Shown here piece after piece: positions 3,062 to 41,165 of a DNA stretch of 58,481 bases. Source of the DNA: a virus (lineage: Duplodnaviria > Caudoviricetes); IMG/VR virus record IMGVR_UViG_3300030233_000054, positions 1-58,481 of that record, one strand, 5' to 3'. The stretch's first letter is position 1, and the number at the start of each line of letters is the position of its first letter. The notes under the pieces were generated by a model, which made no database searches, was not told the origin of the DNA, and saw only the letters and a program-made list of their open reading frames with translations. Both the position numbers and the translations under genes were made by a program.

Positions 3062-4099
3062 TCAGAACACCTTCACCTCGCACACGTCATCGGTCTTCAG
3101 GCCAAGCTCATCGGCAAGTCCGGGCGAAAGGTCCGCCACGCGGTTGGTGCGCTCATGCGGCCCCCAGTCCAGAGGCTTGGCGAAGGCTTTCTTGCCGGTG
3201 CGGGTGTTGGTCACTTCGGCCATTAGTTTGATCAGTTCGCTTTTCGGGATCTTGGTGTAGTCCCAGCGGCAGGCCAGGTACTTGGTGGCGGGGTTCATGC
3301 GCCGCGCCAGACCGGTGGTGCCTTTGGGTTGCTCAGGCAGGAAGTATTCCTCTACCTGTCGCCAGTTCGACGGGAAGACCATCGCCAGGCCCTCGGAGGG
3401 CGTCACACCCGTGTCCTTTGGCCCGCCAAAGGTGGACATCTTGCCCACGGCGTGGAAGCGCGGCTTGTCATCCTTGATCGGAGCGCCTTCTGGAAGCACG
3501 ATGCTGCCGCCTTGGTACTCAGCGAGCAAGTAAGTGAACTCGCGCTTGTCCCATGGCTTGTCCGGGTAAAGGTCAGCCAGAATGCCGTACAACAATTCGC
3601 GGTACTCCCAAAACTGATAGGAGGTCTGGCATCCCCAACTGGAGGTGGAGGACTTGCTGCCATAGTGGTGGTTGATGCCAAACCACCCGTCTTCCTGCCA
3701 ATGCGACTTACGTCCGTCCGGCCCGTCCGGGTCGCGCAACACCTGCACGGTTTCAGCCTGCCGAAAGGCCTTGTACTGGCCCTTGTGGTAACCGGGGCGG
3801 TACTTCCAGATGCCCGGAGCCAGCACGGCGTAAGGCTTGCCCAGTGCCCGGTTCCAGCCCCAGCGGCTCGGATCGACATTGGCATTGAACGCCCGGTGAA
3901 TCTCCGGCGTCACCACAAACCAGGCGTCATCGTAAATGCCAGCATCGTTCTTGCCTGTCAGGCCCATGCTGTCGCGGAAGTAACCGCGCACGCCCAGCAC
4001 CACCACGCCTTCGGCTTGCAGGTTGATGCCCGCCTTCTCCAGCACATAGTGAGTGTGGATGGCGCTCTGTTGGGGGCGGCTCGATGGATGCTTTCTCAT
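3062..4099 (-). CDS. Putative endolysin: YkuD-like Cys peptidase domain plus RlpA-like DPBB domain
   Basis: GINHH...SWGCQT His/Cys motif; C-terminal DWGP...RVADLSPGLADELG RlpA-like signature. Confidence 0.7.
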   Translation of the reverse strand: MRKHPSSRPQQSAIHTHYVLEKAGINLQAEGVVVLGVRGYFRDSMGLTGKNDAGIYDDAWFVVTPEIHRAFNANVDPSRWGWNRALGKPYAVLAPGIWKYRPGYHKGQYKAFRQAETVQVLRDPDGPDGRKSHWQEDGWFGINHHYGSKSSTSSWGCQTSYQFWEYRELLYGILADLYPDKPWDKREFTYLLAEYQGGSIVLPEGAPIKDDKPRFHAVGKMSTFGGPKDTGVTPSEGLAMVFPSNWRQVEEYFLPEQPKGTTGLARRMNPATKYLACRWDYTKIPKSELIKLMAEVTNTRTGKKAFAKPLDWGPHERTNRVADLSPGLADELGLKTDDVCEVKVF

Positions 4100-9348: not shown

Positions 9349-9362
9349 TTATTTGTCAATAC
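9349..9362 (-). promoter_or_regulatory. GTATTGACAAATAA motif copy 1
   Basis: Exact 14-mer, 51 nt before ATG 9297. Confidence 0.75.
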
Positions 9363-11915: not shown

Positions 11916-11929
11916 TTATTTGTCAATAC
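11916..11929 (-). promoter_or_regulatory. GTATTGACAAATAA motif copy 2
   Basis: Exact, 5 nt before portal ATG. Confidence 0.75.
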
Positions 11930-14156: not shown

Positions 14157-17100
14157 TCAGTGGCTATCGGTGGCCGCCTGCAGGTACGCCCGGTTTAGGC
14201 TGTCGATAATCCGCTTTTCGCGCTGGTCCAGCGAGTCCAGGATTTCTTTCTTCTTGGCGTCGTCCAGCTTGGAAGCGCTGACCTGCTCCCGGCGTTCACG
14301 CACGCCTTTTAAAGCCTTCTTGGCATTCTTCGCTTGATCGCTCAGGCGCAGCAACGCGCTCTTGCTTTCGCGAATTTCTTGAACACGGTCGGCGTTGCCG
14401 GATTTCCTGTGCTGCTTGTACTGCCTGCTGATATCCTCGATCTCGCGGACGCGATCATAGAACAGGCGCTTGTCCATCCAAGTAGGCTTGGCACCCACCA
14501 CCGTCCGCAAGACGGGCACCTCGTTGTACTCCAGCGGTTCGCCGTCAAAGAGCTTGGAGGCGAGATTTGGAACGCGGATCAGCCATTCCCGGCCAGCCGA
14601 GCCCGTGAGTTGGCCAAACATGTAATCCCACACGTGCGGGCTGTAACTGAACGAGCCCTTGGCGAAGTCGTCTCCCCCGGTAAGCTGGTTGAGCTTCCGA
14701 CTCAAGGCAACGCTCATGGGCGAAGCGCTGGGATAGTACTGCTCGCTGGGAGGGCGGGTATCGTACGAGTTCTCCGGGTAGATGGGACGGTCGGCAAAGT
14801 CCCGGTTGCGGTACAGGTCCACAATCGGATCGAAAAGAGTTGGCGCGAGGAAATTGCCCAGGCTGTTCACGCCGCCAAACGGATTCGTTGCCTCTGCCGC
14901 AGTCGTGAGCGTGCCCATGGAAGCCTCCAGCGGCGTCTTCTTCCCGCGTGTCAGGGCACTAAGGTTGCGCCCCGCGTCCGTGAAGACGTTGTAGCCGTAC
15001 GGCAGCGGGATCTTCGCGTAGTCCCCGTTGGGCAGCATGAAGATCATGTTCCGGCTTTTCTCGTACTCGGGGATCTTGTCGTAAACCAGCTCCCCATCTT
15101 CATCTTCAGGAGAGAGGAATGAATTAAGCAGATCCAGCGCAAAGCCTTGAGCGACGATGGCGTAGACCACTTGCCGGACGCGTTTGTTCTTCAGGTTGTT
15201 GTAGATTACCAGATTCCCCTGTACCGAAGCGTTGAAGAACAGATAGAACGCGTTCATCGTCGGCCCAAGCGAGCCGCGCTTGTTGAAGTCCACTGTCAAG
15301 TTGCGGGCAACGCTGGCCGCTTCGGCGGGTGACATGCCTAGATGCTTGCGGGCATTCACGTAGGTAGAGAGGCGGACAGCATTGTCCACCGCCTGGTTGC
15401 CGCGCTCAACCAGATTCATGATGCCGCGAATAGAGCGCATCGAGATCGCGCCCGGCGTGTTCTTGCGCAGAGCCAACTCCCGGTTGAAGTTTTTGGCCTG
15501 GTTCTGCACATCGTCGATTTTGAAGAACGAAACCTTGCCGCCAGCCTTGGCGTACTCGCGGAAATGCTTTTGCCACTCGGTGGCCTCCTTGCCCTTCAAG
15601 CCATCGTACGCGCCGCGCAGCGCCTTCGGGTAGTCGCGCACCACATCCTTGAAGAACTTGGCCTTGCCGTACTTCTGGAGATGAACGCTCGCGGTCTGGA
15701 AGTCCCGCAGCGCATTACGCACCACGAAGTCGAGCGAGTAGCTGGTATTGAGCGCTGACAGTAGCCGGTTGAAATGCCCCGCCAGCTTAGCGAGCCCGGT
15801 CAGTTTTTCGGCATCCAGGTTGGAGAGGGCCTTCGCCACGCGCTCGTCTTTAATCAGGATGGTGACCGGCTTGCCGTCCACCTTCAGCTTGATGGAATTG
15901 CTTCCCACCAACCGCTGCGCCTGCTTGGTCAGCTTGTACTCGACAAGGCCGGTAGCCTTACTGAAGACAGGCCGAACGGCCACCGGATCAATGGCCCAGT
16001 AGTCGTCATTCGGGTTGTTCTTCACCAGCTCGTGGAACTGTAAGGCGACCTGGTTCTTATGCGAGCGAACCGCCGCCTCTTCCGCTACCATGAAGGCGTG
16101 CGCCAGCAAGTCCGTCGCCCGGCTCTTCCGGCCAAGCGCCATCTCGCTTTCCTTGCCCCGGATGTTGAAACCCGCCCCCTGCTTGGGGTTTCCGGGCTCA
16201 GTTCCGTCCGCCGCCTCATCCAGCCCGCGCAATGGGATGTAGTGCTTGTACTGGCTCCAAGCTTCAAATTCTTCCGGCGCGAGAAGCTGCCCTTCCTTGC
16301 GCTTCCGCATGGAGAACTTGGCCAGTCCATCCATCAGCTCGCCAATCTGCTTGAAGGTATCTCCTTTGTCTCCGCTCTCGGAATCCTTGATGATAGCTTT
16401 TGCCTCGGCAGTCAACATGCCAGAGCCGCCATCAAGGAACGCGGGATTGCGCTGGGCGATTACATGGTTGCGCTCAATGGCATGGCGGGCATAGAGGTAG
16501 TCTTCCACCTCGTCCAACGTCAGGTTGTTTGCCGTCATCAGGTCGATGACCGGCTCCTTGTACTTCCATTTGATTTGATCCAGCGCCTCGCCTGCCTTAC
16601 CGCTGTAAAGCGACTGTCCAAGATAGGGGTTCTCACTCTCCTTGAGCGGCCTGCCTAGTCCGTTCTCAATCGCTTCCTGCACACGCTTGAGCGGCAGGAA
16701 GCGGTCGGCAAACATGGAGAGCAGGCGGTCAGCCTCCGCTTTGATGGCTTGCCCCTTCCCTTCGAGGTCGCTGCGCAATTTCTGCGTCCAACCTTGATTA
16801 GTTTCGAGCAGGTCTTGCATCATGCCGGGGTCCGCGTAGCCGTCGAAGTCCCCCATGCGCGAAAGCGAGCGCGCATATCTGATGTCGCCATTGTGCGGAT
16901 CGAACGTCCCTTGATTCCCTGTAGCGCTCTTGATCTGATTCGGCTCAAACACCGCGATAGTGGGAGCGCCCTCTTCAGTCAACCGGATGCCGTCGTAGCC
17001 AAGTTGGCGGATCATGCCGACGCGGGTTTCAATTTCCGGCCAGCTATCCTCCGGGTTTCTGCGCATGGCTTTAATATCGCTCTCAGCGAAGCCTTTGGCC

Positions 17101-20100
17101 TGTGCCGCATCCTTCGCGTCTCCGCCCTCCAGGTATGCCTTGGCCGCGTTGTCAATGTATTCTTTAGCGTCCTGTTCGCTGAACGGATCGAAGGGCTTTT
17201 GAGAATTGAGGTAAACCGGAAGGACGTTGCCGCCACGATGGAAGTTTGGCGGTCCTTTACGGTCGCTTGATTCGTTCGCATACTTCTCCGTGATCTTGGG
17301 ATCTGGAGTGAAGAAAATTAACGGCTGCTGGCGCTTGTACTCGGGAGCGTTCGACTCTTCCGCCTCTACGCGGTTGAGTCCGTCGCCGTAATAGGAGGGC
17401 TCAAACGCTTCAATGCCGACACGGTTGGTGCCATGGTAGACCACCTGGGGATTACCTTCTACATCCACCACTTTGCTGTCGCCAAACCAGTTCTTGAACT
17501 CAGGGTTGCCGGTTTGGGCCGCAGCGAGGGGGCGGGCAAATTTCTGATCTCCCCGCAAAATGGCTTCGGCTTCCCGAATAACCTCATCCAGAAGCGGACT
17601 TGCCGCCTTGGGAGACAGGGCGATGCGCTTCAGTTCTTCGATGGCCGCTTGAACCCATTGAACAACGCGATTGTACGCCTTCTGCGCAATGCCTTCGGTG
17701 GTCGATCCTGAATTGCGAAGCTGGATCGCCATCCTGCCAATCTCAAACATCGCCTGGAATGGGTTCGCATCGAATGCCTCGACAACTCGCGGGAGGTCAG
17801 CCTCCTTCATGGGCAGTAGATTCCTGGGCTGGTAATAAATATTGAAGGCGTCTATCAGTGCCTTTTTGCCCTCCTCGGTCGAGGCAAGCTCGGCAAGCAT
17901 TTTTTGGCTTTCTGCTTGCGCATATTCAAATGTGGACATTCCCTTGGGCGCTTTCCTATCCAGCGCCTTGGCCCACGCCCCGTGGATAAGCTCCTCCTGA
18001 AGCACGGCCTCAACATGCTCTTGGGAGATGGGGACTTTCGAGTTAGCGAAATAGCCTTCTGCGAGATACAGGGCGTTCTCAGACATGCGGTACATCGCAA
18101 AGTCATTGAAGCCAGCGCTTTTCGCCTCAGCATCAGACAAGACGTTAATCTTGACTCCGAGCGAATTGAATCCCGGAGACATCTGCTTCAACGCGCTTCG
18201 GACTACCCGAAGATTGCTGTCCGAATGTTTTCCGCCTCCGCCTTGGACGGGGTCAGATCGCTTGGATGCGAAGAGCTGTAGTCGGACTCCCGTCCCGCTT
18301 CCGGCAAAAGATTCTGCGGCTTCTTGTGTGGCGGGGGCATCACTGGCGCTTCCTGGAAGGTTTGTGGTGTCGCGCTCATTGGAAATAGTATCATCTTCCC
18401 GCTTGCCGGTGTCAAGACGACGTGCAAACAACATGGGCTTGATGTCGCGCTCGGTATAGCCCCGGTTCCTCAGCCGGTTGCGCATGATCTGCCGGGCGGT
18501 CTTCAGTTGGTTGGAGATGAACTGATTGCTGGCGCCAAGTTCCTGAGCCAGTTCCTGCTGTGTTTTGCCCTCGGCAATACCCTTGAGGATCGCCCGCTTT
18601 CTGGGGTTCTGAATCTTCTCCAGCTCCTCGGCTGCCACACGCGAAAGCTCGTTCAACTGCGCTTCCTCAGCCGACGTGCGCACGCCTTCGTCCGGCACCT
18701 GGTCCTTGAAGGATTCCTCGGCATCGTCGTACAGCGCCACGTCGAGCAGCGCCCGCTCCGGGTTCTTGCTGGAGCTGCGGAAGAGCGACTTTAGCCGGTT
18801 GCGCACGGCGGTTTGGGCGTACGGCACAAAGTCGCCGGCATCCGGCGTGTAGACGCCAGCCGCATCCATCAGCGCCTGTATCGCCTCCTGATTCACGTCC
18901 TGCGGATCGGTGGCGGGAATGTTGCGGAAAGACTTGGCGATACGCTCCGCGTTCGGAATGGTTTCCTCCACCATCCGGCTGATCACCGCCTGGGCGTTCT
19001 CGATGAGCCGATTCTGATTCGCATTCGGCTCAGCGTCTGATCCTTTCAGGCGCTCGCGAACGCGCAGACGGCGGCGCAGAGCGATCTTCTCCGGGCCGCT
19101 CAGCTCGACCTTTTCAACCGGGGGCTTGGTGCTTAGGGGGCGGGCGGATTTTTGCTCTCCAGCATCTTTTTCTGCCATTCCGGCATCGACCTCTCCCATG
19201 ACGGCATTGGAAGCGCTCCCTCCTTCTCCTTGGCCCTGGCCGTCACCACGCGCTCGATCACGTACAGGAGCATTTCCGTCTTGTCCTTCGGCTTCTCCTG
19301 AAGGTGATTGACTAACATCTCGTCTTCCATCCCAATCAGGAAGTCGTTCGCCCAAAACACTTCTTTCGCCACCATTTGCTCCGCTTCGGTTAAGCGAAAC
19401 TCGTCCCATGTCTTTGACAGGAGAAGTAGATGTGCGATCAGTAGACCCGTCTTGCTGTCCTTGTCCATCTCGCTCCAGAGGTAATTCGCCATCGCTTTGA
19501 TGCTCTCGCTGTCGGTCGGCTCGAAGACTTCTCGCGGCTTTTTGAGTGCCGCCATTGTCTGTCGCGCTTTCTTCGGTACTTCTGGGTACATTTTCATCGT
19601 AGTATTCTTTGGTAATGACTCCATCAGCAAGAAGCTCATCAAATAGCTCTTGCTTGGTTTTGTTGGACGGTACTTCTTTAGTATCGCTTTCTTCTTCGGT
19701 TTTTTCAATCAGCCTTCTGGAAATCAGGATCTCCGTGTGGCCCTCAAGCAAGTACGACAGGTAAAGATGGTTCCTGTCCATGATCTTGAGGTTTTCGTCT
19801 ACCGGGACAAATTCTGGCTCCTTGCCTTCAGCCGCACGCTTGCGGATTTCTGCTCGCGTTCTAGGTATATGCTTGGCGTCAATGAAATCCTGATTTCGAG
19901 TGATCGTGTTGATGGGCAACTTCTGGACAATATGTAGGACGCCAACTGGTGTTCTACGCACAAAACCACCGGATGGTAAATCCTGTCGCTCTTCCGCCTC
20001 CAACCCCTTCCCGATCTCCAACGCCTCCGCATCATGGGAGGTATCAACTTTCGGGCGGTCCTTCCCGTACTTCGGAACGGCGGTGGGATTCTTCGGATCA

Positions 20101-23100
20101 ATGAAGACGCCTGGGACAATCTCCTTCAGCCCGGCTAGTTCTGGCTGTAGTCCCCGCTCAGGATCTTTTGCACCAGCTCCTCGCTGGTCTGCGCCTTCAC
20201 CCGGCTCTTGGCGTGCTTGATCAGCCGCGCCGTCTCCAGAAACGCCACGCTGTTCTTGTTCGCCCACCATGTCGCGTCCTGAGTCTGCGCGAGCGTCAGA
20301 TCGGCGGGCTCGATCAGGAACGTCACGATCAGCTCCATCCAGCTTCTTTCTGGGCAGCTTGGCGGCGTCTCCGGGTTTTCGTTGTCCGGTTTCATCATCC
20401 TTGGCAGTAGACTGTGCGGTGTCATCATCGCGTTGTCCACTACGGGATTTGGGCTTCGTTCCCAATGGGGATTTTGTGCCACTATCTTTGATCAGGGATT
20501 CAACCTGGTCAACGATGGCCTGCACTTCTTGGGGAAGCTTGCCTTCAAACAGTTCGCGGAGGCGCTGGACAAAAGCACGCAGGTAGTTGGCAAATCCTTG
20601 GGGGACCTTGCCGCGCTTCAGCAGCTCAATGTAATTGGCTGCCGCTTCAGTGCTGCCCTCAAGCCGGGCCTGCACAGCGGCGCGGACGGCTTCCGAGAAG
20701 ATATCCGCGTCGCTCAGTCCCTTCGGGCGCTGCTTTCCCTTGCTTTGGATGAAGCGCTTCCCGGCCTCCGGGTCGTTCACGTAATTCGAGATGACGGCCT
20801 CCAGAAACTCCGGGTTCGCCCGGCGCAGTCCATCGACCTGAGATCGAACATAGCCCTTCAGCGATCTGCCGGACTTCTTTGCCTGGGCGACGGTGACTTG
20901 ATTCTCAATCGCGTGCACCACCTCTTCCAGGGCGACCTGCTCCACATAGGCGTCGAATTGCTCCGGCGTGGGGGCAAAGTCAAGTTGACCGGCCATCACC
21001 TCGTCATTGTCGGAAACAACGATTTGATTGGACTGCGGGTCAAAGCCAAACGGGCCATCGCCTCGGGTCTTGGTTGCGGCCACTTGGGGGGCTACGCCGA
21101 TCTGTTTCAAGATGGGCGCGTACTTGCTCACGGCGGCATTGAGCTTCGCCCGCACGCCCTCGGCATCCACCGTTCCACGTGGAACAACTGTATAATTTCC
21201 ATTGGCTTCCGTTACCTTCACCCACCCGGCTGATTCCAACTGTTTCCAGTCGTTTAGTTCCTCCGGGCTGGTGACGGTAATCGGCTTGCCTCCGGCCTGG
21301 CGCAGCGCAGCGCCAAAGGTTGTCCCGTCCTCGCGGGTATCGGCAAGGCTTACCGGGGGGAGTCCCTCGGATTCTCCGGCAACCTGCTGAACAGCTTCGC
21401 CGCCCTGTCCGTCTGGCGCTGCATCCATTGCAGGTACGTCCTCGGCTGCTTCGGCTTCTTGGGTGGCCAGTTCTTCTTGGGCATTAGCTCGGTCCTCGTT
21501 GATGGCGCGGGTGTTCTCGGCAAAGCGGAGAGCAGTCGGGGCCACGTTGCGTAGGCGGTTGAGCCCGGCATCTGTCAGCACCACCTGCCCGTCCTTGCCG
21601 CGTTCGGCCAGCGGTTGGCCGGTAGTGGCGTCCACGGTGCCTGTGAGCTGCGCCGCTTCGGTTTCGGTGAGTTGCTGCCCGGAATGGGCTCGTGTGGCCA
21701 ACAGGACGGCGGTACGAGCTTCCGCGTCCTGCTCCGGGGTGGCGTCCACCGCTGGACTGGTGACGCCGTAAATCTCCTGTGCCGCAGCACTGGCAAGTCC
21801 AAGGTCGGCCTGGGCTTCGGTGGTGACCTGCCCCGCTTCAACCAGACGCCCCATGGCCACACTGCGCTGAGGCAGCACGGCGGCATTGTTGCCCTTAGCC
21901 TTCTCTTCGGCCTGCTTCATGACAGCGTCCGCCTCCAGCATGGCCTGTCCGGTCATCTGCACGGCGGATTCGATCTCACCCAGGCGCTCCGGCCCGACGA
22001 GTTGCGCCGTGGTCTGCACCACTTCATTGCCGCCCGGATTCTTGAGGGTGGTGACAGCGGCGGCCACATCCGTCATGCGAGGCAGGATGTTCAAGCCTTG
22101 GGCTTCGTAGTGCGCCCGGAGCTTCTTGCTCATCTCCTTGAGGTTGGCGTGCTTGGCGTCCCGCATGTTGCCCGCCACGCCGGGAATGCTGAACGCGAGC
22201 GCCGCCCACAGGCTGCCCTTCAGGATGTCCTCGAAATTCTCACTGGCACGCTCACCACGGATCGAGGCTTCCAGCATCTCGCTGACCGTCTCCCCAGTGA
22301 AAGCCCCGGCACCTTGCAGCATCGTCCGCATGATCGGGCGGCGGGTCAGGTCCACCATGTTGCCGATCTTGCGCTCAAGTTGGTTGCCGGCACCCTCGAC
22401 GGCGCGAAGCGTCAGGGCGTTTCCGGTGATGCTCATGACGCGGTTGAGGAATCCCATGTCCGCCCGGTTCTCGCTGAAGGACTGCCCCGCTCCAAAGAGG
22501 CCGTAGCCGCCCAGGTTGCCGATCTCGGATGCCAGCCCTTTTCCCTTGCCTTTGCCGAGCGCCCTACTCACCGCACGGCCAACGCCCATCTTGGCGGCGG
22601 GCTGGCCGATCAGCGCCCGCCCCAGGTTGCGGCTGATGATGAACGCGCCCACCGATCCGAACACTTGCCCGGCCAAGGCGCTTTCCTTGTACTGGTCGCT
22701 GGAGAGAAGTTGCAGGATCTCGCTGCGCAAGGCAGTGCGCATGGCCACCTGCTGGGGATCGTTCTCGTCAATCGCGACATTAAACCCGCCTTCACCCAGC
22801 AGCATGAGCAGGGAACTGTTGAAGTTTTCCATGGTGGCGTAAGCCTGGCCCTTCACGCCGCCTTCCTTCATCACGTTGACGAAATTCTGTAGGCTCTTCA
22901 GGTTCTTGCGGCCAGAGCGGCGCACCTTGACATCCATCGGCGTGGTGTCGCCCTTGACGTGGAAATTGATGTCGCCAAACCCGCCCCACCCCTTAGGTAC
23001 GATGTCCTGCCCCTCGGCAAGCTGCTGCTGGTACTGGTCCGCCTTGAGAAGAGCTTGAGCGGCAGACTCGCCTTTGAGGCTGCCAATGAGTTCCGTTGCT

Positions 23101-24902
23101 TCGTTTGCTTTCGCCTGCCGCTCAATATCTTCACTCCGCACGCCAAGGGCGACACGGAAAAACTCTCCCGGCCCCGTCAGGGCGAAGTCCAAGCTGGAGC
23201 TGATCTTCTCCCAAAAGCCTGCTTTGGGATCGTTGTGGACCTGGGCGCGGCGCTGGTGGCTGTCCTTGATCCGCTGCTGGGCATCCCGGTAATTCTGCCC
23301 GTCGCTGTCGTAGTTAAAGACGCCCATCTCCGAGCGGTTGGCCTGCTGGTATTCTTCCAGCCGGGCAGCAAGCTGACGGGCACCTTCAGCTTTGGCTTGC
23401 TCGATACCCTCCATCACCTCGCCCGTGGCGCTCTCCAAATCCTGGCGGAAGTTGAGGATGTCCCCGACGCGGGCCATGCCCGGAACTAGTTCGTCAATGC
23501 GCTCGTCAATCTCCTCGCGTTGAATTTCGTCGAAGATCGGCTCACCCGGCTTTGGATCGACCTGCCGTGCCTCGTCGCCAAGGATGCGGTACGCCTCCTG
23601 GATGTTCTCGTAGGCGTTCTGAATCTCACTCTCCATGGGCTCGTCGCGCTGGCGCTGGAACTCAATGCGGCGGCGTCCCTCTTCCAAAAGCGTGCGGGCG
23701 TACTGCTTGTCCTTTTTCGCGTGGTAGCCTCGGCGTCCGGCCTCGACTCGCGACGGGTCTTTGCCTTCAGCCTTCGCCCGCTCGCGTTCCTCGGGGGAAA
23801 GCGTGAGGTGATCTTCCAGCGCCTGTTCACGCCGCTCATCAGCGGACGGCGGCGCGTTCTGCGCCATCTGCTGGGGAGCTGGCCGGGACGGCATACGCAG
23901 GGGATTCTCGATGTAATCCACCTTCGCCTGCTTGGCTCCGATCTCGGCCCGCTTTAGTTCGCGGTACTTGGCCTCATCATCATCGTGGGCGGCGCTGAGT
24001 TCGTTGCGCTGGGTGAGCAGGGCTTCACGGGCCTTGAGGAGCTTCTTCTTTTCTGCATGCGCCTGGCGCTCTTCCTCGGTGATCGGATCGTACTCGGTCA
24101 GCTTGTCCAGTTCCTTCAGGCGGGAATCTGACGCCTTCAACTTGTCCTCGACTTCGCGCAGGGCATCGCTCGACTCGCCGCGCTTCAGGTACTGCTGCTG
24201 TCGCGCCAGCTCGGCCTTGTCCTCGGCAGCGGAAAGCATGTCTTTTCTACGGCCAATAGCAGGCTTGATGATCGCCTCCTGCTCGCGCTTGAGGATGTCC
24301 TGCTCCAGCTCCGCGTTCGCGGGCTTGCGGGCAGTCAACGGGTTGGTGATGTCCGCCACGGCCTGTTGCGTCACGTCCTTGAGCGGCAGGGTCTTGATGC
24401 GTGTGCCCTTGGTGTCGATGGGCGTCTGCACGATCTGCCCGGCGTCGTTCAGTTCGCGCTTGCCCCGGTACGGGTCGATCTTCTGGATCTTTCCCCGGTC
24501 GTCACGCTTCTTAATGTACGCCGGACCAATCGGAGGCTGCTCGACGCCAAGTTCCTTCGGCTCGTACTTCAGGCTGCCGTCTTGGTGGCGGTCGGCAATG
24601 GGCGTTGTCACCACCCCGTCAACAGTCGGGTTGTACTCGGAGCGCTCCTTGAAGCTGACGCCGGTTTCGCGGTACTGGCGAATCTGGTTGCGGATGCGGG
24701 CTTGTTCCTTGAGCTTGAGCAGACGGGCGCGTTCAGCCTTTTCCTTAGCAAGCTGCTTCTCGCGCTCCTTGCGCTGCGCCTCCATCCTGCGGGCAAGGGC
24801 TTCCTGCTCCTGCTCTCGCTGGCGCTGCAACCGCTGCTCATTCGCAACCGCGCTGGATGCTACACGGCGATTGTAACGGTCAAGTGGGGTGTTAAGAGCC
24901 AT
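14157..24902 (-). CDS. Giant polyvalent (probably virion-ejected) protein: coiled coil, two zincin-like EExxH domains, ParB-like, sigma70-like, ADP-ribosyltransferase and LPD38-like domains
   Basis: 3581 aa; LEEVVHAIE and QEELIHGAW; FKNWFGDSKVVD..GNPQVVYHGT...GYDGI...FEPNQIKSATGN; C-terminal YAKIPLPYG...NRDFADRPIYPE. Confidence 0.85.
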   Translation of the reverse strand: MALNTPLDRYNRRVASSAVANEQRLQRQREQEQEALARRMEAQRKEREKQLAKEKAERARLLKLKEQARIRNQIRQYRETGVSFKERSEYNPTVDGVVTTPIADRHQDGSLKYEPKELGVEQPPIGPAYIKKRDDRGKIQKIDPYRGKRELNDAGQIVQTPIDTKGTRIKTLPLKDVTQQAVADITNPLTARKPANAELEQDILKREQEAIIKPAIGRRKDMLSAAEDKAELARQQQYLKRGESSDALREVEDKLKASDSRLKELDKLTEYDPITEEERQAHAEKKKLLKAREALLTQRNELSAAHDDDEAKYRELKRAEIGAKQAKVDYIENPLRMPSRPAPQQMAQNAPPSADERREQALEDHLTLSPEERERAKAEGKDPSRVEAGRRGYHAKKDKQYARTLLEEGRRRIEFQRQRDEPMESEIQNAYENIQEAYRILGDEARQVDPKPGEPIFDEIQREEIDERIDELVPGMARVGDILNFRQDLESATGEVMEGIEQAKAEGARQLAARLEEYQQANRSEMGVFNYDSDGQNYRDAQQRIKDSHQRRAQVHNDPKAGFWEKISSSLDFALTGPGEFFRVALGVRSEDIERQAKANEATELIGSLKGESAAQALLKADQYQQQLAEGQDIVPKGWGGFGDINFHVKGDTTPMDVKVRRSGRKNLKSLQNFVNVMKEGGVKGQAYATMENFNSSLLMLLGEGGFNVAIDENDPQQVAMRTALRSEILQLLSSDQYKESALAGQVFGSVGAFIISRNLGRALIGQPAAKMGVGRAVSRALGKGKGKGLASEIGNLGGYGLFGAGQSFSENRADMGFLNRVMSITGNALTLRAVEGAGNQLERKIGNMVDLTRRPIMRTMLQGAGAFTGETVSEMLEASIRGERASENFEDILKGSLWAALAFSIPGVAGNMRDAKHANLKEMSKKLRAHYEAQGLNILPRMTDVAAAVTTLKNPGGNEVVQTTAQLVGPERLGEIESAVQMTGQAMLEADAVMKQAEEKAKGNNAAVLPQRSVAMGRLVEAGQVTTEAQADLGLASAAAQEIYGVTSPAVDATPEQDAEARTAVLLATRAHSGQQLTETEAAQLTGTVDATTGQPLAERGKDGQVVLTDAGLNRLRNVAPTALRFAENTRAINEDRANAQEELATQEAEAAEDVPAMDAAPDGQGGEAVQQVAGESEGLPPVSLADTREDGTTFGAALRQAGGKPITVTSPEELNDWKQLESAGWVKVTEANGNYTVVPRGTVDAEGVRAKLNAAVSKYAPILKQIGVAPQVAATKTRGDGPFGFDPQSNQIVVSDNDEVMAGQLDFAPTPEQFDAYVEQVALEEVVHAIENQVTVAQAKKSGRSLKGYVRSQVDGLRRANPEFLEAVISNYVNDPEAGKRFIQSKGKQRPKGLSDADIFSEAVRAAVQARLEGSTEAAANYIELLKRGKVPQGFANYLRAFVQRLRELFEGKLPQEVQAIVDQVESLIKDSGTKSPLGTKPKSRSGQRDDDTAQSTAKDDETGQRKPGDAAKLPRKKLDGADRDVPDRARRSDARADSGRDMVGEQEQRGVSGDGAADQARQEPGEGADQRGAGAKDPERGLQPELAGLKEIVPGVFIDPKNPTAVPKYGKDRPKVDTSHDAEALEIGKGLEAEERQDLPSGGFVRRTPVGVLHIVQKLPINTITRNQDFIDAKHIPRTRAEIRKRAAEGKEPEFVPVDENLKIMDRNHLYLSYLLEGHTEILISRRLIEKTEEESDTKEVPSNKTKQELFDELLADGVITKEYYDENVPRSTEESATDNGGTQKAARSLRADRQREHQSDGELPLERDGQGQQDGSTDRTSTSPVKDMGRVSLNRSGANGGERSVLGERLPDWDGRRDVSQSPSGEAEGQDGNAPVRDRARGDGQGQGEGGSASNAVMGEVDAGMAEKDAGEQKSARPLSTKPPVEKVELSGPEKIALRRRLRVRERLKGSDAEPNANQNRLIENAQAVISRMVEETIPNAERIAKSFRNIPATDPQDVNQEAIQALMDAAGVYTPDAGDFVPYAQTAVRNRLKSLFRSSSKNPERALLDVALYDDAEESFKDQVPDEGVRTSAEEAQLNELSRVAAEELEKIQNPRKRAILKGIAEGKTQQELAQELGASNQFISNQLKTARQIMRNRLRNRGYTERDIKPMLFARRLDTGKREDDTISNERDTTNLPGSASDAPATQEAAESFAGSGTGVRLQLFASKRSDPVQGGGGKHSDSNLRVVRSALKQMSPGFNSLGVKINVLSDAEAKSAGFNDFAMYRMSENALYLAEGYFANSKVPISQEHVEAVLQEELIHGAWAKALDRKAPKGMSTFEYAQAESQKMLAELASTEEGKKALIDAFNIYYQPRNLLPMKEADLPRVVEAFDANPFQAMFEIGRMAIQLRNSGSTTEGIAQKAYNRVVQWVQAAIEELKRIALSPKAASPLLDEVIREAEAILRGDQKFARPLAAAQTGNPEFKNWFGDSKVVDVEGNPQVVYHGTNRVGIEAFEPSYYGDGLNRVEAEESNAPEYKRQQPLIFFTPDPKITEKYANESSDRKGPPNFHRGGNVLPVYLNSQKPFDPFSEQDAKEYIDNAAKAYLEGGDAKDAAQAKGFAESDIKAMRRNPEDSWPEIETRVGMIRQLGYDGIRLTEEGAPTIAVFEPNQIKSATGNQGTFDPHNGDIRYARSLSRMGDFDGYADPGMMQDLLETNQGWTQKLRSDLEGKGQAIKAEADRLLSMFADRFLPLKRVQEAIENGLGRPLKESENPYLGQSLYSGKAGEALDQIKWKYKEPVIDLMTANNLTLDEVEDYLYARHAIERNHVIAQRNPAFLDGGSGMLTAEAKAIIKDSESGDKGDTFKQIGELMDGLAKFSMRKRKEGQLLAPEEFEAWSQYKHYIPLRGLDEAADGTEPGNPKQGAGFNIRGKESEMALGRKSRATDLLAHAFMVAEEAAVRSHKNQVALQFHELVKNNPNDDYWAIDPVAVRPVFSKATGLVEYKLTKQAQRLVGSNSIKLKVDGKPVTILIKDERVAKALSNLDAEKLTGLAKLAGHFNRLLSALNTSYSLDFVVRNALRDFQTASVHLQKYGKAKFFKDVVRDYPKALRGAYDGLKGKEATEWQKHFREYAKAGGKVSFFKIDDVQNQAKNFNRELALRKNTPGAISMRSIRGIMNLVERGNQAVDNAVRLSTYVNARKHLGMSPAEAASVARNLTVDFNKRGSLGPTMNAFYLFFNASVQGNLVIYNNLKNKRVRQVVYAIVAQGFALDLLNSFLSPEDEDGELVYDKIPEYEKSRNMIFMLPNGDYAKIPLPYGYNVFTDAGRNLSALTRGKKTPLEASMGTLTTAAEATNPFGGVNSLGNFLAPTLFDPIVDLYRNRDFADRPIYPENSYDTRPPSEQYYPSASPMSVALSRKLNQLTGGDDFAKGSFSYSPHVWDYMFGQLTGSAGREWLIRVPNLASKLFDGEPLEYNEVPVLRTVVGAKPTWMDKRLFYDRVREIEDISRQYKQHRKSGNADRVQEIRESKSALLRLSDQAKNAKKALKGVRERREQVSASKLDDAKKKEILDSLDQREKRIIDSLNRAYLQAATDSH
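18203..18379 (-). CDS. Nested +1-frame small protein (58 aa) inside giant gene
   Basis: MSATPQTFQEAPVMPPPHKK...ENIRTAIFG; consensus-like promoter 7 nt upstream. Confidence 0.55.
   Translation of the reverse strand: MSATPQTFQEAPVMPPPHKKPQNLLPEAGRESDYSSSHPSDLTPSKAEAENIRTAIFG
18387..18415 (-). promoter_or_regulatory. Intragenic sigma70 promoter TTGACA-N17-GATACT
   Basis: -35 at 18410-18415, -10 at 18387-18392, ATG at 18379. Confidence 0.7.
19133..19597 (-). CDS. Nested +1-frame helical protein (about 154 aa) inside giant gene
   Basis: Amphipathic globular sequence where the main frame is R/G/D/Q/S low complexity; start uncertain. Confidence 0.6.
   Translation of the reverse strand: MKMYPEVPKKARQTMAALKKPREVFEPTDSESIKAMANYLWSEMDKDSKTGLLIAHLLLLSKTWDEFRLTEAEQMVAKEVFWANDFLIGMEDEMLVNHLQEKPKDKTEMLLYVIERVVTARAKEKEGALPMPSWERSMPEWQKKMLESKNPPAP
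20135..20428 (-). CDS. Nested +1-frame protein (about 97 aa) inside giant gene
   Basis: SWMELIVTFLIEPADLTLAQTQDATWWANKNSVAFLETARLIK... globular where the main frame is low complexity; start uncertain. Confidence 0.55.
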   Translation of the reverse strand: MMTPHSLLPRMMKPDNENPETPPSCPERSWMELIVTFLIEPADLTLAQTQDATWWANKNSVAFLETARLIKHAKSRVKAQTSEELVQKILSGDYSQN

Positions 24903-25412: not shown

Positions 25413-25426
25413 TTATTTGTCAATAC
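25413..25426 (-). promoter_or_regulatory. GTATTGACAAATAA motif copy 3
   Basis: Exact, 24 nt before ATG 25388 (TTGACA-N17-CATCCT-N6-ATG). Confidence 0.75.
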
Positions 25427-29360: not shown

Positions 29361-29374
29361 TTATTTGTCAATAC
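29361..29374 (-). promoter_or_regulatory. GTATTGACAAATAA motif copy 4
   Basis: Exact, 18 nt before ATG 29342. Confidence 0.75.
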
Positions 29375-35792: not shown

Positions 35793-35806
35793 TTATTTGT
35801 CAATAC
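35793..35806 (-). promoter_or_regulatory. GTATTGACAAATAA motif copy 5
   Basis: Exact, 44 nt before capsid ATG. Confidence 0.75.
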
Positions 35807-36993: not shown

Positions 36994-37007
36994 TTATTTG
37001 TCAATAC
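36994..37007 (-). promoter_or_regulatory. GTATTGACAAATAA motif copy 6 (degenerate tandem copy at 37015-37028)
   Basis: Exact, 25 nt before scaffold ATG. Confidence 0.75.
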
Positions 37008-40845: not shown

Positions 40846-41165
40846 TTATTTGTCAATACCTTGTGGGGAGAACAAAGCACCCTCTGGTCCCGGCCCGGCC
40901 ACCTGTGGGCCTGTGTCTGCTGCCAGTCTAGGGGCGCAGAGTGGTCAGGCAACCGGTTGTGCCGCCCGCGAATGTCGTAGGACGCCCCGTCTATCTCGGT
41001 GTAGACATGGCCCTCGACCGCTGCGTACCAAGCGCGAGCCTGTGGAAAGAGAGCCCGCAGCATGAGTGAGAGCGTCACGCACTGCCCCTCCATGAACAGC
41101 GGCACCATAACGTCAGGATGGCCGTTGCGAAGAGCGGCTAGGGCGTTGTCTGCGGGGGTGTTCAT
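40842..41165 (-). CDS. Hypothetical protein (GxC...H...YDIRG, papain-fold-like)
   Basis: EGQC...GHVYTEIDGASYDIRG. Confidence 0.55.
   Translation of the reverse strand: MNTPADNALAALRNGHPDVMVPLFMEGQCVTLSLMLRALFPQARAWYAAVEGHVYTEIDGASYDIRGRHNRLPDHSAPLDWQQTQAHRWPGRDQRVLCSPHKVLTNK
40846..40859 (-). promoter_or_regulatory. GTATTGACAAATAA motif copy 7
   Basis: Exact, abuts terL ATG, inside the upstream CDS. Confidence 0.7.

Follow-up and report, generated by a model that had tools for sequence, protein, structure and literature searches.

Does a single giant phage gene conceal smaller genes in the low-complexity stretches of its protein? The question is raised by a complete phage-like genome of 58,481 base pairs (bp) (IMG/VR record IMGVR_UViG_3300030233_000054; ∼58% G+C), which was analyzed over its whole length and is called the window herein. 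It carries one giant polyvalent virion gene, and three open reading frames (ORFs) on the same strand, in the +1 frame, sit exactly where the main frame of this gene becomes R/G/D/Q-rich. A preliminary description of this DNA had placed three ORFs with ATGs at 20428, 19597, and 18379 in these stretches, and they are present as claimed. From stop to stop, the open +1 runs extend over 20135..20491 (118 codons), 19133..19708 (191 codons), and 18203..18469 (88 codons); the nested ORFs within them are termed X1, X2, and X3, respectively, and lie in another frame wholly inside the giant gene (14157..24902; Table 1). We conclude that the +1 frame of the giant gene contains real small genes that encode proteins, namely, X1, X2, and probably X3, and that the giant gene reads through them as a tether selected to stay open; we give this reading a probability of roughly two in three.

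Codon usage was scored with a codon model trained on 16 other long genes of the genome, and the same 16 genes served as controls in both alternative frames. In these genes, the GC contents at codon positions 1, 2, and 3 are 0.62, 0.43, and 0.77; in amino acids (aa) 1801 to 1900 of the giant protein they are 0.74, 0.57, and 0.29, which is the genome pattern shifted by one base, and in aa 1501 to 1600, the main-frame GC content at third codon positions (GC3) is 0.46. The best-scoring frame turns from the main frame to the +1 frame at aa ∼1501 to 1580, ∼1761 to 1900, and ∼2181 to 2220. A check of codon usage and GC3 along the gene, which had been proposed earlier, thus finds the +1 switch in just three stretches; an isolated 40-codon +1 window at aa 1141 belongs to a segment with a score of 7.5, which lies under the null. 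The maximal segments of +1-minus-main codon log-odds coincide with the linker residues given in Table 1 and cover 19157..19591 for X2 (score, 67.4), 20138..20386 for X1 (35.3), and 18221..18364 for X3 (16.2), and the highest alternative-frame segment among the 16 control genes scores 10.7. An ATG is present at the signal onset of all three, since each segment starts at a +1 ATG or 4 to 5 codons after it (19591/19597, 20398, and 18379), and each stops 0 to 7 codons short of the +1 stop codon. For X1, the start at 20398 is preferred over the one at 20428 named at first, because ten rare codons follow the latter.

The +1 signature goes beyond what the host frame imposes, with X3 being marginal. 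When the main-frame protein was fixed and synonymous codons were redrawn from genome usage, the +1 codon score exceeded the resamples by 5.4 standard deviations (SD) for X1, 7.1 SD for X2, and 4.8 SD for X3, and main-frame synonymous usage fell below expectation by 6.2, 11.4, and 4.4 SD, respectively. In four control stretches of the same gene, the +1 score deviated by −0.3 to 2.2 SD and main-frame synonymous usage by −2.6 to 1.4 SD. In a stricter permutation, which kept the main-frame protein and the local codon usage and exchanged synonymous codons only between sites that encode one and the same amino acid, the +1 score was still in excess for X1 (z = 2.5; P = 0.0013) and X2 (z = 4.0; reached by 0 of 3,000 permutations). 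An open +1 frame is improbable for X2 given the main protein (P = 0.0185). Conversely, 1.5 to 6 main-frame stops are expected given the +1 proteins and none is observed (P for no stop, 0.10 [67-codon core] or 0.007 [118 codons] for X1, 0.003 for X2, and 0.19 for X3), showing that the read-through of the giant gene is selected. Two frames are thus simultaneously constrained in the window, the +1 frame at the level of its protein and the main frame only in having to be open and hydrophilic.

The hydrophobic fraction of the X1 and X2 products is 0.28 and 0.33, close to the 0.27 of real genes, and that of the linkers lying over X1 and X2 is 0.08 and 0.12, with 32 to 42% charged residues and 16% Gly; the X3 product is Pro-rich and has a hydrophobic fraction of 0.15. 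The earlier view that the +1 frame is protein-like and that the main frame is its off-frame reading therefore holds for X1 and X2, in codon usage and in composition, and only marginally for X3. In overlapping gene pairs, the frame with genome-typical codon usage is taken as the older one. Because this usage lies in the +1 frame here, the small genes look older and the main-frame linkers look like the overprint, which reverses the direction suggested in the preliminary description (small genes overprinted on linkers).

It could be argued that there is no second gene at all, the linkers being rare-codon, low-complexity spacers (for example, pause sites) and the +1 ORFs being due to chance. The +1 frame of the giant gene contains 100 stops in 3,581 codons, its longest open runs are 191, 155, 118, 113, 110, and 108 codons, and simple arithmetic on the stop count predicts ∼0.5 runs of ≥191 codons, roughly a coin flip; the length of the nested ORFs is by itself within chance. 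The openness of X1 and X3 is expected from the linker composition, and long shadow ORFs are abundant in the giant gene (antisense, up to 445 codons). However, rare codons alone do not give a gene-like +1 score, the +1 excess persists when the main-frame protein and codon usage are kept, the +1 products have a normal protein composition with signals bounded by an ATG and a stop, and the +2 frame is without such segments in 74 related giant genes (see below), all of which makes the absence of a second gene very improbable. A fourth +1 ORF between X1 and X2 (19799..20125, minus strand, 108 codons) has no coding signature, only short segments with scores of ≤10.0, and was dismissed as due to chance; it overlies a folded module at aa 1593 to 1700.

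The C-terminal ∼850 aa of the giant protein, which match phrog_14770, phrog_616, and phrog_10691, define a family of giant genes. Relatives of the C-terminal 853 aa were found in 344 GenBank phage records (Vibrio, Stx-converting/Escherichia, Ralstonia, Burkholderia, Ruegeria, and others), and at least 558 stretches of IMG/VR viral contigs encode one. A first survey covered six giant genes, each scanned with its own codon model, and revealed +1 segments in those of Ruegeria phage 45A6 (scores of 25.4 and 16.4) and Ralstonia phage NK-7 (62.4 and 22.1); the four giant genes with a GC3 of ≤0.56 showed no segment above 7. A second survey started from 80 IMG/VR loci, of which six with <1,500 giant-gene codons were excluded, leaving 74, and five segments located within the initial 180 codons of the available ORF were disregarded. 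An internal +1 segment with a score of ≥15 was present in 16 of the 30 loci with a GC3 of ≥0.66, versus 0 of 30 for the +2 frame, and in 2 of the 44 loci with a lower GC3, versus none for +2. The survey of other giant genes called for at the outset thus uncovered conserved +1 nested genes. The 16 segments are stop-free, except for one that consists of two consecutive ORFs, and in 13 of 24 extracted candidates, the nearest ATG lies ≤6 codons from the signal onset. Thirty-one nested products were compared with all loci by local tblastn: 10 queries gave non-self matches, and all 34 of these matches lie in frame +1 of the matched giant ORF; no non-self match was obtained for the other 21 (the three queries from the window and 18 others).

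Some nested products resemble known families. That of locus L038 matches DUF7626 (E = 2e-7) and RepB_primase_C (6e-6), and that of L020 has a weak match to TnpV (0.002, below the cut-off). The nested +1 product of L094 (1734-2045) matches positions 2094 to 2169 of the 2,185 positions of phrog_938 (E = 2.5e-15), a giant "endolysin" family in which the homologous sequence is an in-frame C-terminal domain; one sequence family is therefore an in-frame terminal domain in one giant lineage and a nested gene in another.

The nested gene referred to as family A was first seen in the +1 frame in 45A6 and five IMG/VR loci and encodes a product of ∼120 aa (M-[HYF]-Q-x-P..WN.IAE..L.T.WA..MFPLP...AYL.V.P.LWE). 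A profile scan detected it in 21 viral contigs (29 to 100% identity to the query). In 19 of the 21, the nested gene lies within a −1-phase ORF of 1,419 to ∼2,130 codons that extends over the entire available locus; the remaining two are cut by contig ends, and free-standing copies were not found. Six GenBank records carry family A (45A6, Serratia phage Parlo [two records], Klebsiella phage ZX1, and two Vibrio phages), and at all six only the giant coding sequence (CDS) is annotated. In Parlo, ZX1, and the two Vibrio phages, the gene lies in the +1 frame of the annotated CDS, with its ATG 2 to 4 codons past a +1 stop; main-frame GC3 is 0.65, 0.63, 0.39, and 0.39, and the chance of the open run, calculated from the local +1 stop density, is 2e-3, 2e-2, 1e-3, and 2e-3, respectively. 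All six members that were inspected for start signals have a conserved ATG and GGAG, GGGAG, or GAGGAG within 22 nucleotides (nt) upstream, and their ATGs lie 1, 4, 6, 11, 21, and 30 codons from the upstream +1 stop.

Selection on family A is visible in the +1 frame. In each of 15 pairs, the +1 frame has a higher amino acid identity than the main frame does (52/120 versus 34/120 in one pair), and the proportion of nonsynonymous differences (pN) is lower than that of synonymous differences (pS) in the +1 frame of all 15 pairs, with pN > pS in the main frame of 13 of them. AlphaFold2, supplied with 15 family A sequences, predicted a compact all-helical model (mean predicted local distance difference test score [pLDDT], 91.6; predicted template modeling score [pTM], 0.84). 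Searched with Foldseek, this model had no counterpart in PDB or BFVD at E ≤0.001, and a sequence profile search of PDB gave nothing credible.

The start signals bear on the idea that ribosomes shift into the +1 frame before each stretch and end at the +1 stop, so that truncated giant proteins ending in X1, X2, or X3 would be made. There is room for a shift site, because the +1 frame is open for 30 to 37 codons upstream of each window ATG, and the L094 product is homologous to an in-frame C-terminal domain of another giant protein family. Against this, the coding signal in the window begins at the ATGs and not upstream, and in family A a +1 stop lies 1, 4, or 6 codons (three members) or 2 to 4 codons (four GenBank phages) before the ATG, with a Shine-Dalgarno-like site in front, which fits initiation and not shifting. 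Programmed-frameshift isoforms are known from lambda G/GT and dnaX, where likewise a second frame within a gene yields an alternative product, whereas the nested genes of the relatives have, immediately past a +1 stop, an ATG and a Shine-Dalgarno sequence of their own; here, no slippery-site scan was made and no shift site identified. We therefore consider frameshift isoforms unlikely.

For 10 of the 21 loci, the neighborhood of family A was scanned across 500 main-frame residues on its downstream side. A ResIII/SNF2 helicase domain was found in 9 of the 10, in 6 of these 9 within ∼55 residues, suggesting that the family A nested gene travels with the helicase module. At L106, the helicase comes after an ART-PolyVal domain, and the tenth locus, L096 (3366-4865), has LAGLIDADG_3 (E = 3e-11) and Hom_end (E = 4e-8) in place of the helicase, domains that may belong to an intein or homing endonuclease inserted in the helicase module. 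At L105 to L107 and L023 (∼3450-3770), ART-PolyVal directly follows family A and is itself followed by the helicase, which indicates that cargo modules were inserted between the nested gene and its usual neighbor. At L087, a +1 segment with a score of 60.7 (main-frame aa 815 to 1006) consists of two consecutive nested ORFs, one of which is a family A member, and at L028, the opening 168 codons of the available sequence, where the locus is truncated on its 5′ side, form a strong +1 segment (score, 84.1). Three or more nested genes are therefore present in some giant genes.

A second family, N1, is found in Ralstonia and Burkholderia phages. In NK-7, it is a 107-aa +1 ORF preceded by AGGAGG, with 6 nt between this sequence and the ATG. 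The ORF is intact from ATG to stop in five more Ralstonia phages and occurs in Burkholderia phages Bcep22, JC1, and DC1 at ∼67% DNA identity. By tblastn, N1 was located in 40 GenBank records (31 Ralstonia and 9 Burkholderia), and the annotation under every match is the giant CDS only. Among the six Ralstonia phages, the numbers of variable sites at main-frame codon positions 1, 2, and 3 are 0, 0, and 21 in a flanking domain and 14, 7, and 1 inside N1 (aa 1375 to 1424), where main-frame position 1 is the third position of the +1 frame. The ratio of nonsynonymous to synonymous substitution rates (dN/dS; Nei-Gojobori) is 0.30 to 0.53 in the +1 frame versus 0.88 to 1.47 in the main frame in 7 of 7 close pairs. 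Nested genes of the relatives are thus conserved, carry start signals of their own, and show purifying selection in their +1 frame; a confident fold is predicted for at least one family.

One alternative is an artifact of assembly or sequencing, in which paired insertion or deletion errors shift true in-frame domains out of frame, and homopolymer runs (A5-6 and C5) do occur near the borders of X2. Six compensating errors would be needed, however, together with a wrong frame that is open by chance (P ∼ 0.003 for X2 alone); moreover, the identical 3,581-aa protein is recorded from two contigs, and independent isolates have the same architecture (N1 in 40 records and family A in 6), so that such errors are an extremely improbable explanation.

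A further alternative is that X1 to X3 are relics, that is, former genes or domains that were swallowed or shifted in frame and are no longer expressed, whose codon signature has not yet been erased and of which only the linker matters. The window ORFs are orphans without a selection test, and the case of the L094 product in phrog_938 demonstrates that such sequences can be ordinary domains elsewhere. On the other hand, all three +1 ORFs are unbroken from ATG to stop, the openness of X2 is improbable, and the nested genes of the relatives have stayed open at 29 to 66% protein identity across phages of Alpha-, Beta-, and Gammaproteobacteria, with purifying selection in the +1 frame. On balance, we regard relics as rather unlikely.

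Several observations weigh against X1 to X3 being genuine genes or against parts of the comparative evidence. X3 is the weakest of the three; it is short and Pro-rich, and in the strict permutation it is marginal (z = 1.7; P = 0.043). Given the main protein, the open +1 frames of X1 and X3 are unremarkable (P = 0.61 and 0.93). No clear Shine-Dalgarno sequence was found before the ATGs of X1 to X3, an absence that carries no weight because most genes of this phage, the giant gene included, are without a recognizable one (upstream regions of 28 genes). All three ORFs are orphans, with no relatives in any search: neither Pfam nor PHROG contains a family match, phmmer with the 191-aa frame of X2 gave 0 matches among 1.84 billion representatives (a library of predicted proteins, from which nested ORFs are mostly missing), and tblastn of X1, X2, and X3 against 50,697 phage records gave nothing, so that the search against phage proteins advised earlier ended without a match. 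Likewise, no relatives were found in scans of viral contigs for the middle of the giant main frame, X2, and X1, of metagenome contigs for X2 and the sigma-factor-like module that lies between X2 and X3, and of genome contigs for this module. AlphaFold2 modeling of X2 without an alignment gave a pLDDT of 45, a poor value that says nothing either way. For N1, the three Ralstonia-versus-Burkholderia pairs are saturated and do not favor the +1 frame, with a dN/dS of 1.19 to 1.61 in the +1 frame versus 0.81 to 1.15 in the main frame and amino acid identities of 42, 36, and 39 in the +1 frame versus 34, 39, and 40 in the main frame. The N1 and family A alignments were also built on the +1 proteins, which biases identity toward the +1 frame.

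Other comparisons of the window gave similar results. A blastn search of 17800 to 20800 against phages was empty, and a word-index homologue search returned only the query itself for aa 1250 to 2450 of the giant protein and nothing for X1. Using hhalign against family A member A4, probabilities of 0.7% for X2 and 0.4% for X1 were obtained, indicating no relation, and X3, compared with family A by the local tblastn only, had no non-self match there. Judged by these comparisons, X1 to X3 appear to share the arrangement of family A but not to belong to it. The recognition value of X2 in the ESM Atlas (1071) is uninformative.

In the reading of X1 to X3 as genuine nested genes, the giant ORF would pass through each small gene in that gene's −1 phase. 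With GC-rich third positions, the −1 phase would read as G/R/D/E/Q-rich, hydrophilic, and poor in stops, and therefore the read-through would serve only as a flexible tether between cargo modules, a linker selected merely to remain open. Ribosomes starting at 24902 would read through and produce a tethered polyprotein, and ribosomes starting at internal ATGs, on the giant mRNA or on transcripts from internal promoters, would produce the small proteins, which probably act with the adjoining cargo module. Since the nested genes lie beside cargo (the helicase in family A; the sigma-like module, which follows X2 and precedes X3, in the window), the simplest guess is that they may serve this cargo as partners, regulators, or assembly factors. 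Present-day expression of X1 to X3, their mode of initiation, and their function are what we infer. A promoter consensus scan of 17800 to 20800 gave 3 sites versus 0.7 ± 0.7 in shuffled sequences, matches that are no evidence of function, and the two promoter-like sites in Table 1 are offered as leads only.

The cargo domains adjoining the nested ORFs had been described earlier as zincin/ParB-like, sigma, and zincin. The sigma assignment is borne out by phrog_1740 and by Pfam Sigma70_r2 (E = 1.2e-6, above the Pfam cut-off), with Sigma70_r4 at E = 0.007, and the zincin/ParB-like assignments found no Pfam support at E values up to 1. Similarity of the nested products to anti-sigma or immunity families, which had been considered as candidate functions, was not found by sequence, profile, or fold. 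For X2 in particular, an anti-sigma role gained no Pfam or PHROG match, and a complex prediction of X2 with the sigma-like module scored 0.00 in a run without controls and speaks neither for nor against binding. The early-effector role that had also been suggested likewise gained no family match. Toxin-immunity and anti-sigma/sigma pairs are similar in that a small gene stands beside an enzymatic or regulatory module, but what lies downstream of family A in 9 of 10 loci is a helicase and not a toxin.

The exclusive use of the +1 phase was considered separately. As a possible relic of ATGA or TAATG start/stop overlaps it is unsupported, because the main-frame codon overlapping the nested stop is ATG or GTG in 0 of 20 cases (the three of the window, 15 family A loci, 45A6, and NK-7). 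Stop density was also rejected as the cause; off-frame stops amount to 0.028 versus 0.034 per codon, and composition differs only moderately. Stop density, composition, and relic starts thus leave this phase bias unexplained.

Genes embedded in phage genes are already known. In the Rz/Rz1 spanins, a small gene lies wholly within a larger phage gene of the same strand, in another frame (Rz1 lies in the +1 frame). The two genes are both translated, and a genome has a single such pair, each member of which encodes a functional lysis protein. The window differs in having several nested genes in one 10-kb gene, a host frame that is a low-complexity tether, and products unrelated to spanins. The phiX174 pairs A/B and D/E are overprinted genes, and in classic overprinting of this kind the new frame is a stand-alone protein, whereas here the new frame connects modules and the older frame is hidden. 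Viral overprinted pairs likewise combine two frames per stretch, one with typical codon usage and the other with atypical usage and a disordered product. In the sections of the JC1 paper that deal with these genes, an embedded Rz1 is reported for Bcep22-like phages, and the DarB-like gp69 is treated as a single gene. The giant protein itself corresponds to the polyvalent proteins of phages and conjugative elements described by Iyer et al. 2017 (PMC5512222) in being a giant container with ART-PolyVal and LPD38, the latter listed in that work as phage-specific; in its main text, the words "frameshift," "overlapping," "linker," and "low-complexity" do not occur, and the architecture that it describes does not include nested genes. 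In the literature searched, outside of which lay most subscription journals, we found no account of genes nested in DarB-like or polyvalent giant genes. The broader outcome is a class of +1 nested genes that recur in giant virion genes, are conserved, and lack annotation.

More generally, podophages of Alpha-, Beta-, and Gammaproteobacteria may thread one ORF of a giant virion gene, in the −1 phase, through small genes that existed beforehand and still function; family A, N1, and X1 to X3 would then form a hidden nested class, missing from all annotations inspected, whose products are dedicated partners of the cargo (regulators, chaperones, or inhibitors) and whose off-frame reading is the linker that allows the polyprotein to exist. 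We see the odds on this wider proposal as even. Should the nested genes be expressed, one to several genes per genome are missing from all annotations of these widespread phages, among which are candidates for therapy or biocontrol directed at Burkholderia, Ralstonia, Serratia, Klebsiella, and Vibrio. Hidden genes could then be searched for by using the low-complexity R/G/D-rich "linkers" of giant proteins as a flag. It would also mean a new route of gene fusion, in which a polyprotein is assembled across intervening genes without deleting them; the hydrophilic and stop-poor sequence that a gene tends to give in its −1 reading would make this possible. Nested proteins beside defined cargo, such as the helicase and the sigma-like module, would provide a handle on the control or assembly of injected anti-defense cargo, and the claim can be tested directly in cultured phages.

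TABLE 1 Coordinates of the nested ORFs and of other features of the window
Feature	Position	Strand	Residues of the giant protein	Remarks
X1, nested +1 gene, 87 aa	20135..20398	minus	1506-1588 (linker)	ATG 20398 (second ATG 20395); TAG 20135-20137
X2, nested +1 gene, 154 aa	19133..19597	minus	1771-1915 (linker)	ATG 19597 (also 19591); TAA 19133-19135
X3, candidate nested +1 gene, 58 aa, Pro-rich	18203..18379	minus	2180-2227 (linker)	ATG 18379; TAG 18203-18205
Promoter-like TTGACA-17-GATACT	18387..18415	minus		Ends 7 nt before the X3 ATG; consensus match, lead only
Promoter-like TTGAAA-17-GATACT	19680..19708	minus		∼80 nt upstream of the X2 ATG; consensus match, lead only
Giant polyvalent virion gene	14157..24902	minus		Single unbroken ORF of 3,581 codons (ORF list, translation)
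Sigma-factor-like cargo module	18456..18953	minus	1984-2149	Between X2 and X3; phrog_1740, E = 2.9e-6
ART-PolyVal (ADP-ribosyltransferase) cargo domain	16902..17465	minus	2480-2667	Pfam, E = 1.2e-21
LPD38 domain	14511..15086	minus	3273-3464	In the conserved C-terminal ∼850 aa; Pfam, E = 1.1e-40
TATTGACAAATAA, exact copies	9349-9361, 11916-11928, 25413-25425, 29361-29373, 35793-35805, 36994-37006, 40846-40858	all minus		

With unrelated cargo domains that include ART-PolyVal, LPD38, and Sigma70_r2, the giant protein is a polyvalent protein of the phage type. When its aa 1 to 2720 were compared with all fetched loci by local tblastn, only aa 2310 to 2683, around the ART domain, matched. Opposite 14157 to 24902, antisense stop-free runs of 445, 316, 269, and more codons were observed; these are shadow ORFs of the ordinary kind that accompanies GC-rich third codon positions.

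Elsewhere in the window, the 13-base motif TATTGACAAATAA is present in 7 exact copies (Table 1) and in 10 copies with ≤2 mismatches, all on the gene strand; by chance, 0.38 matches would be expected at ≤2 mismatches. The copies lie 0 to 51 nt upstream of ATG starts, and none is inside the giant gene. The motif is probably a phage-specific promoter or another expression signal, and one copy precedes the 159-aa gene just upstream of the giant gene.

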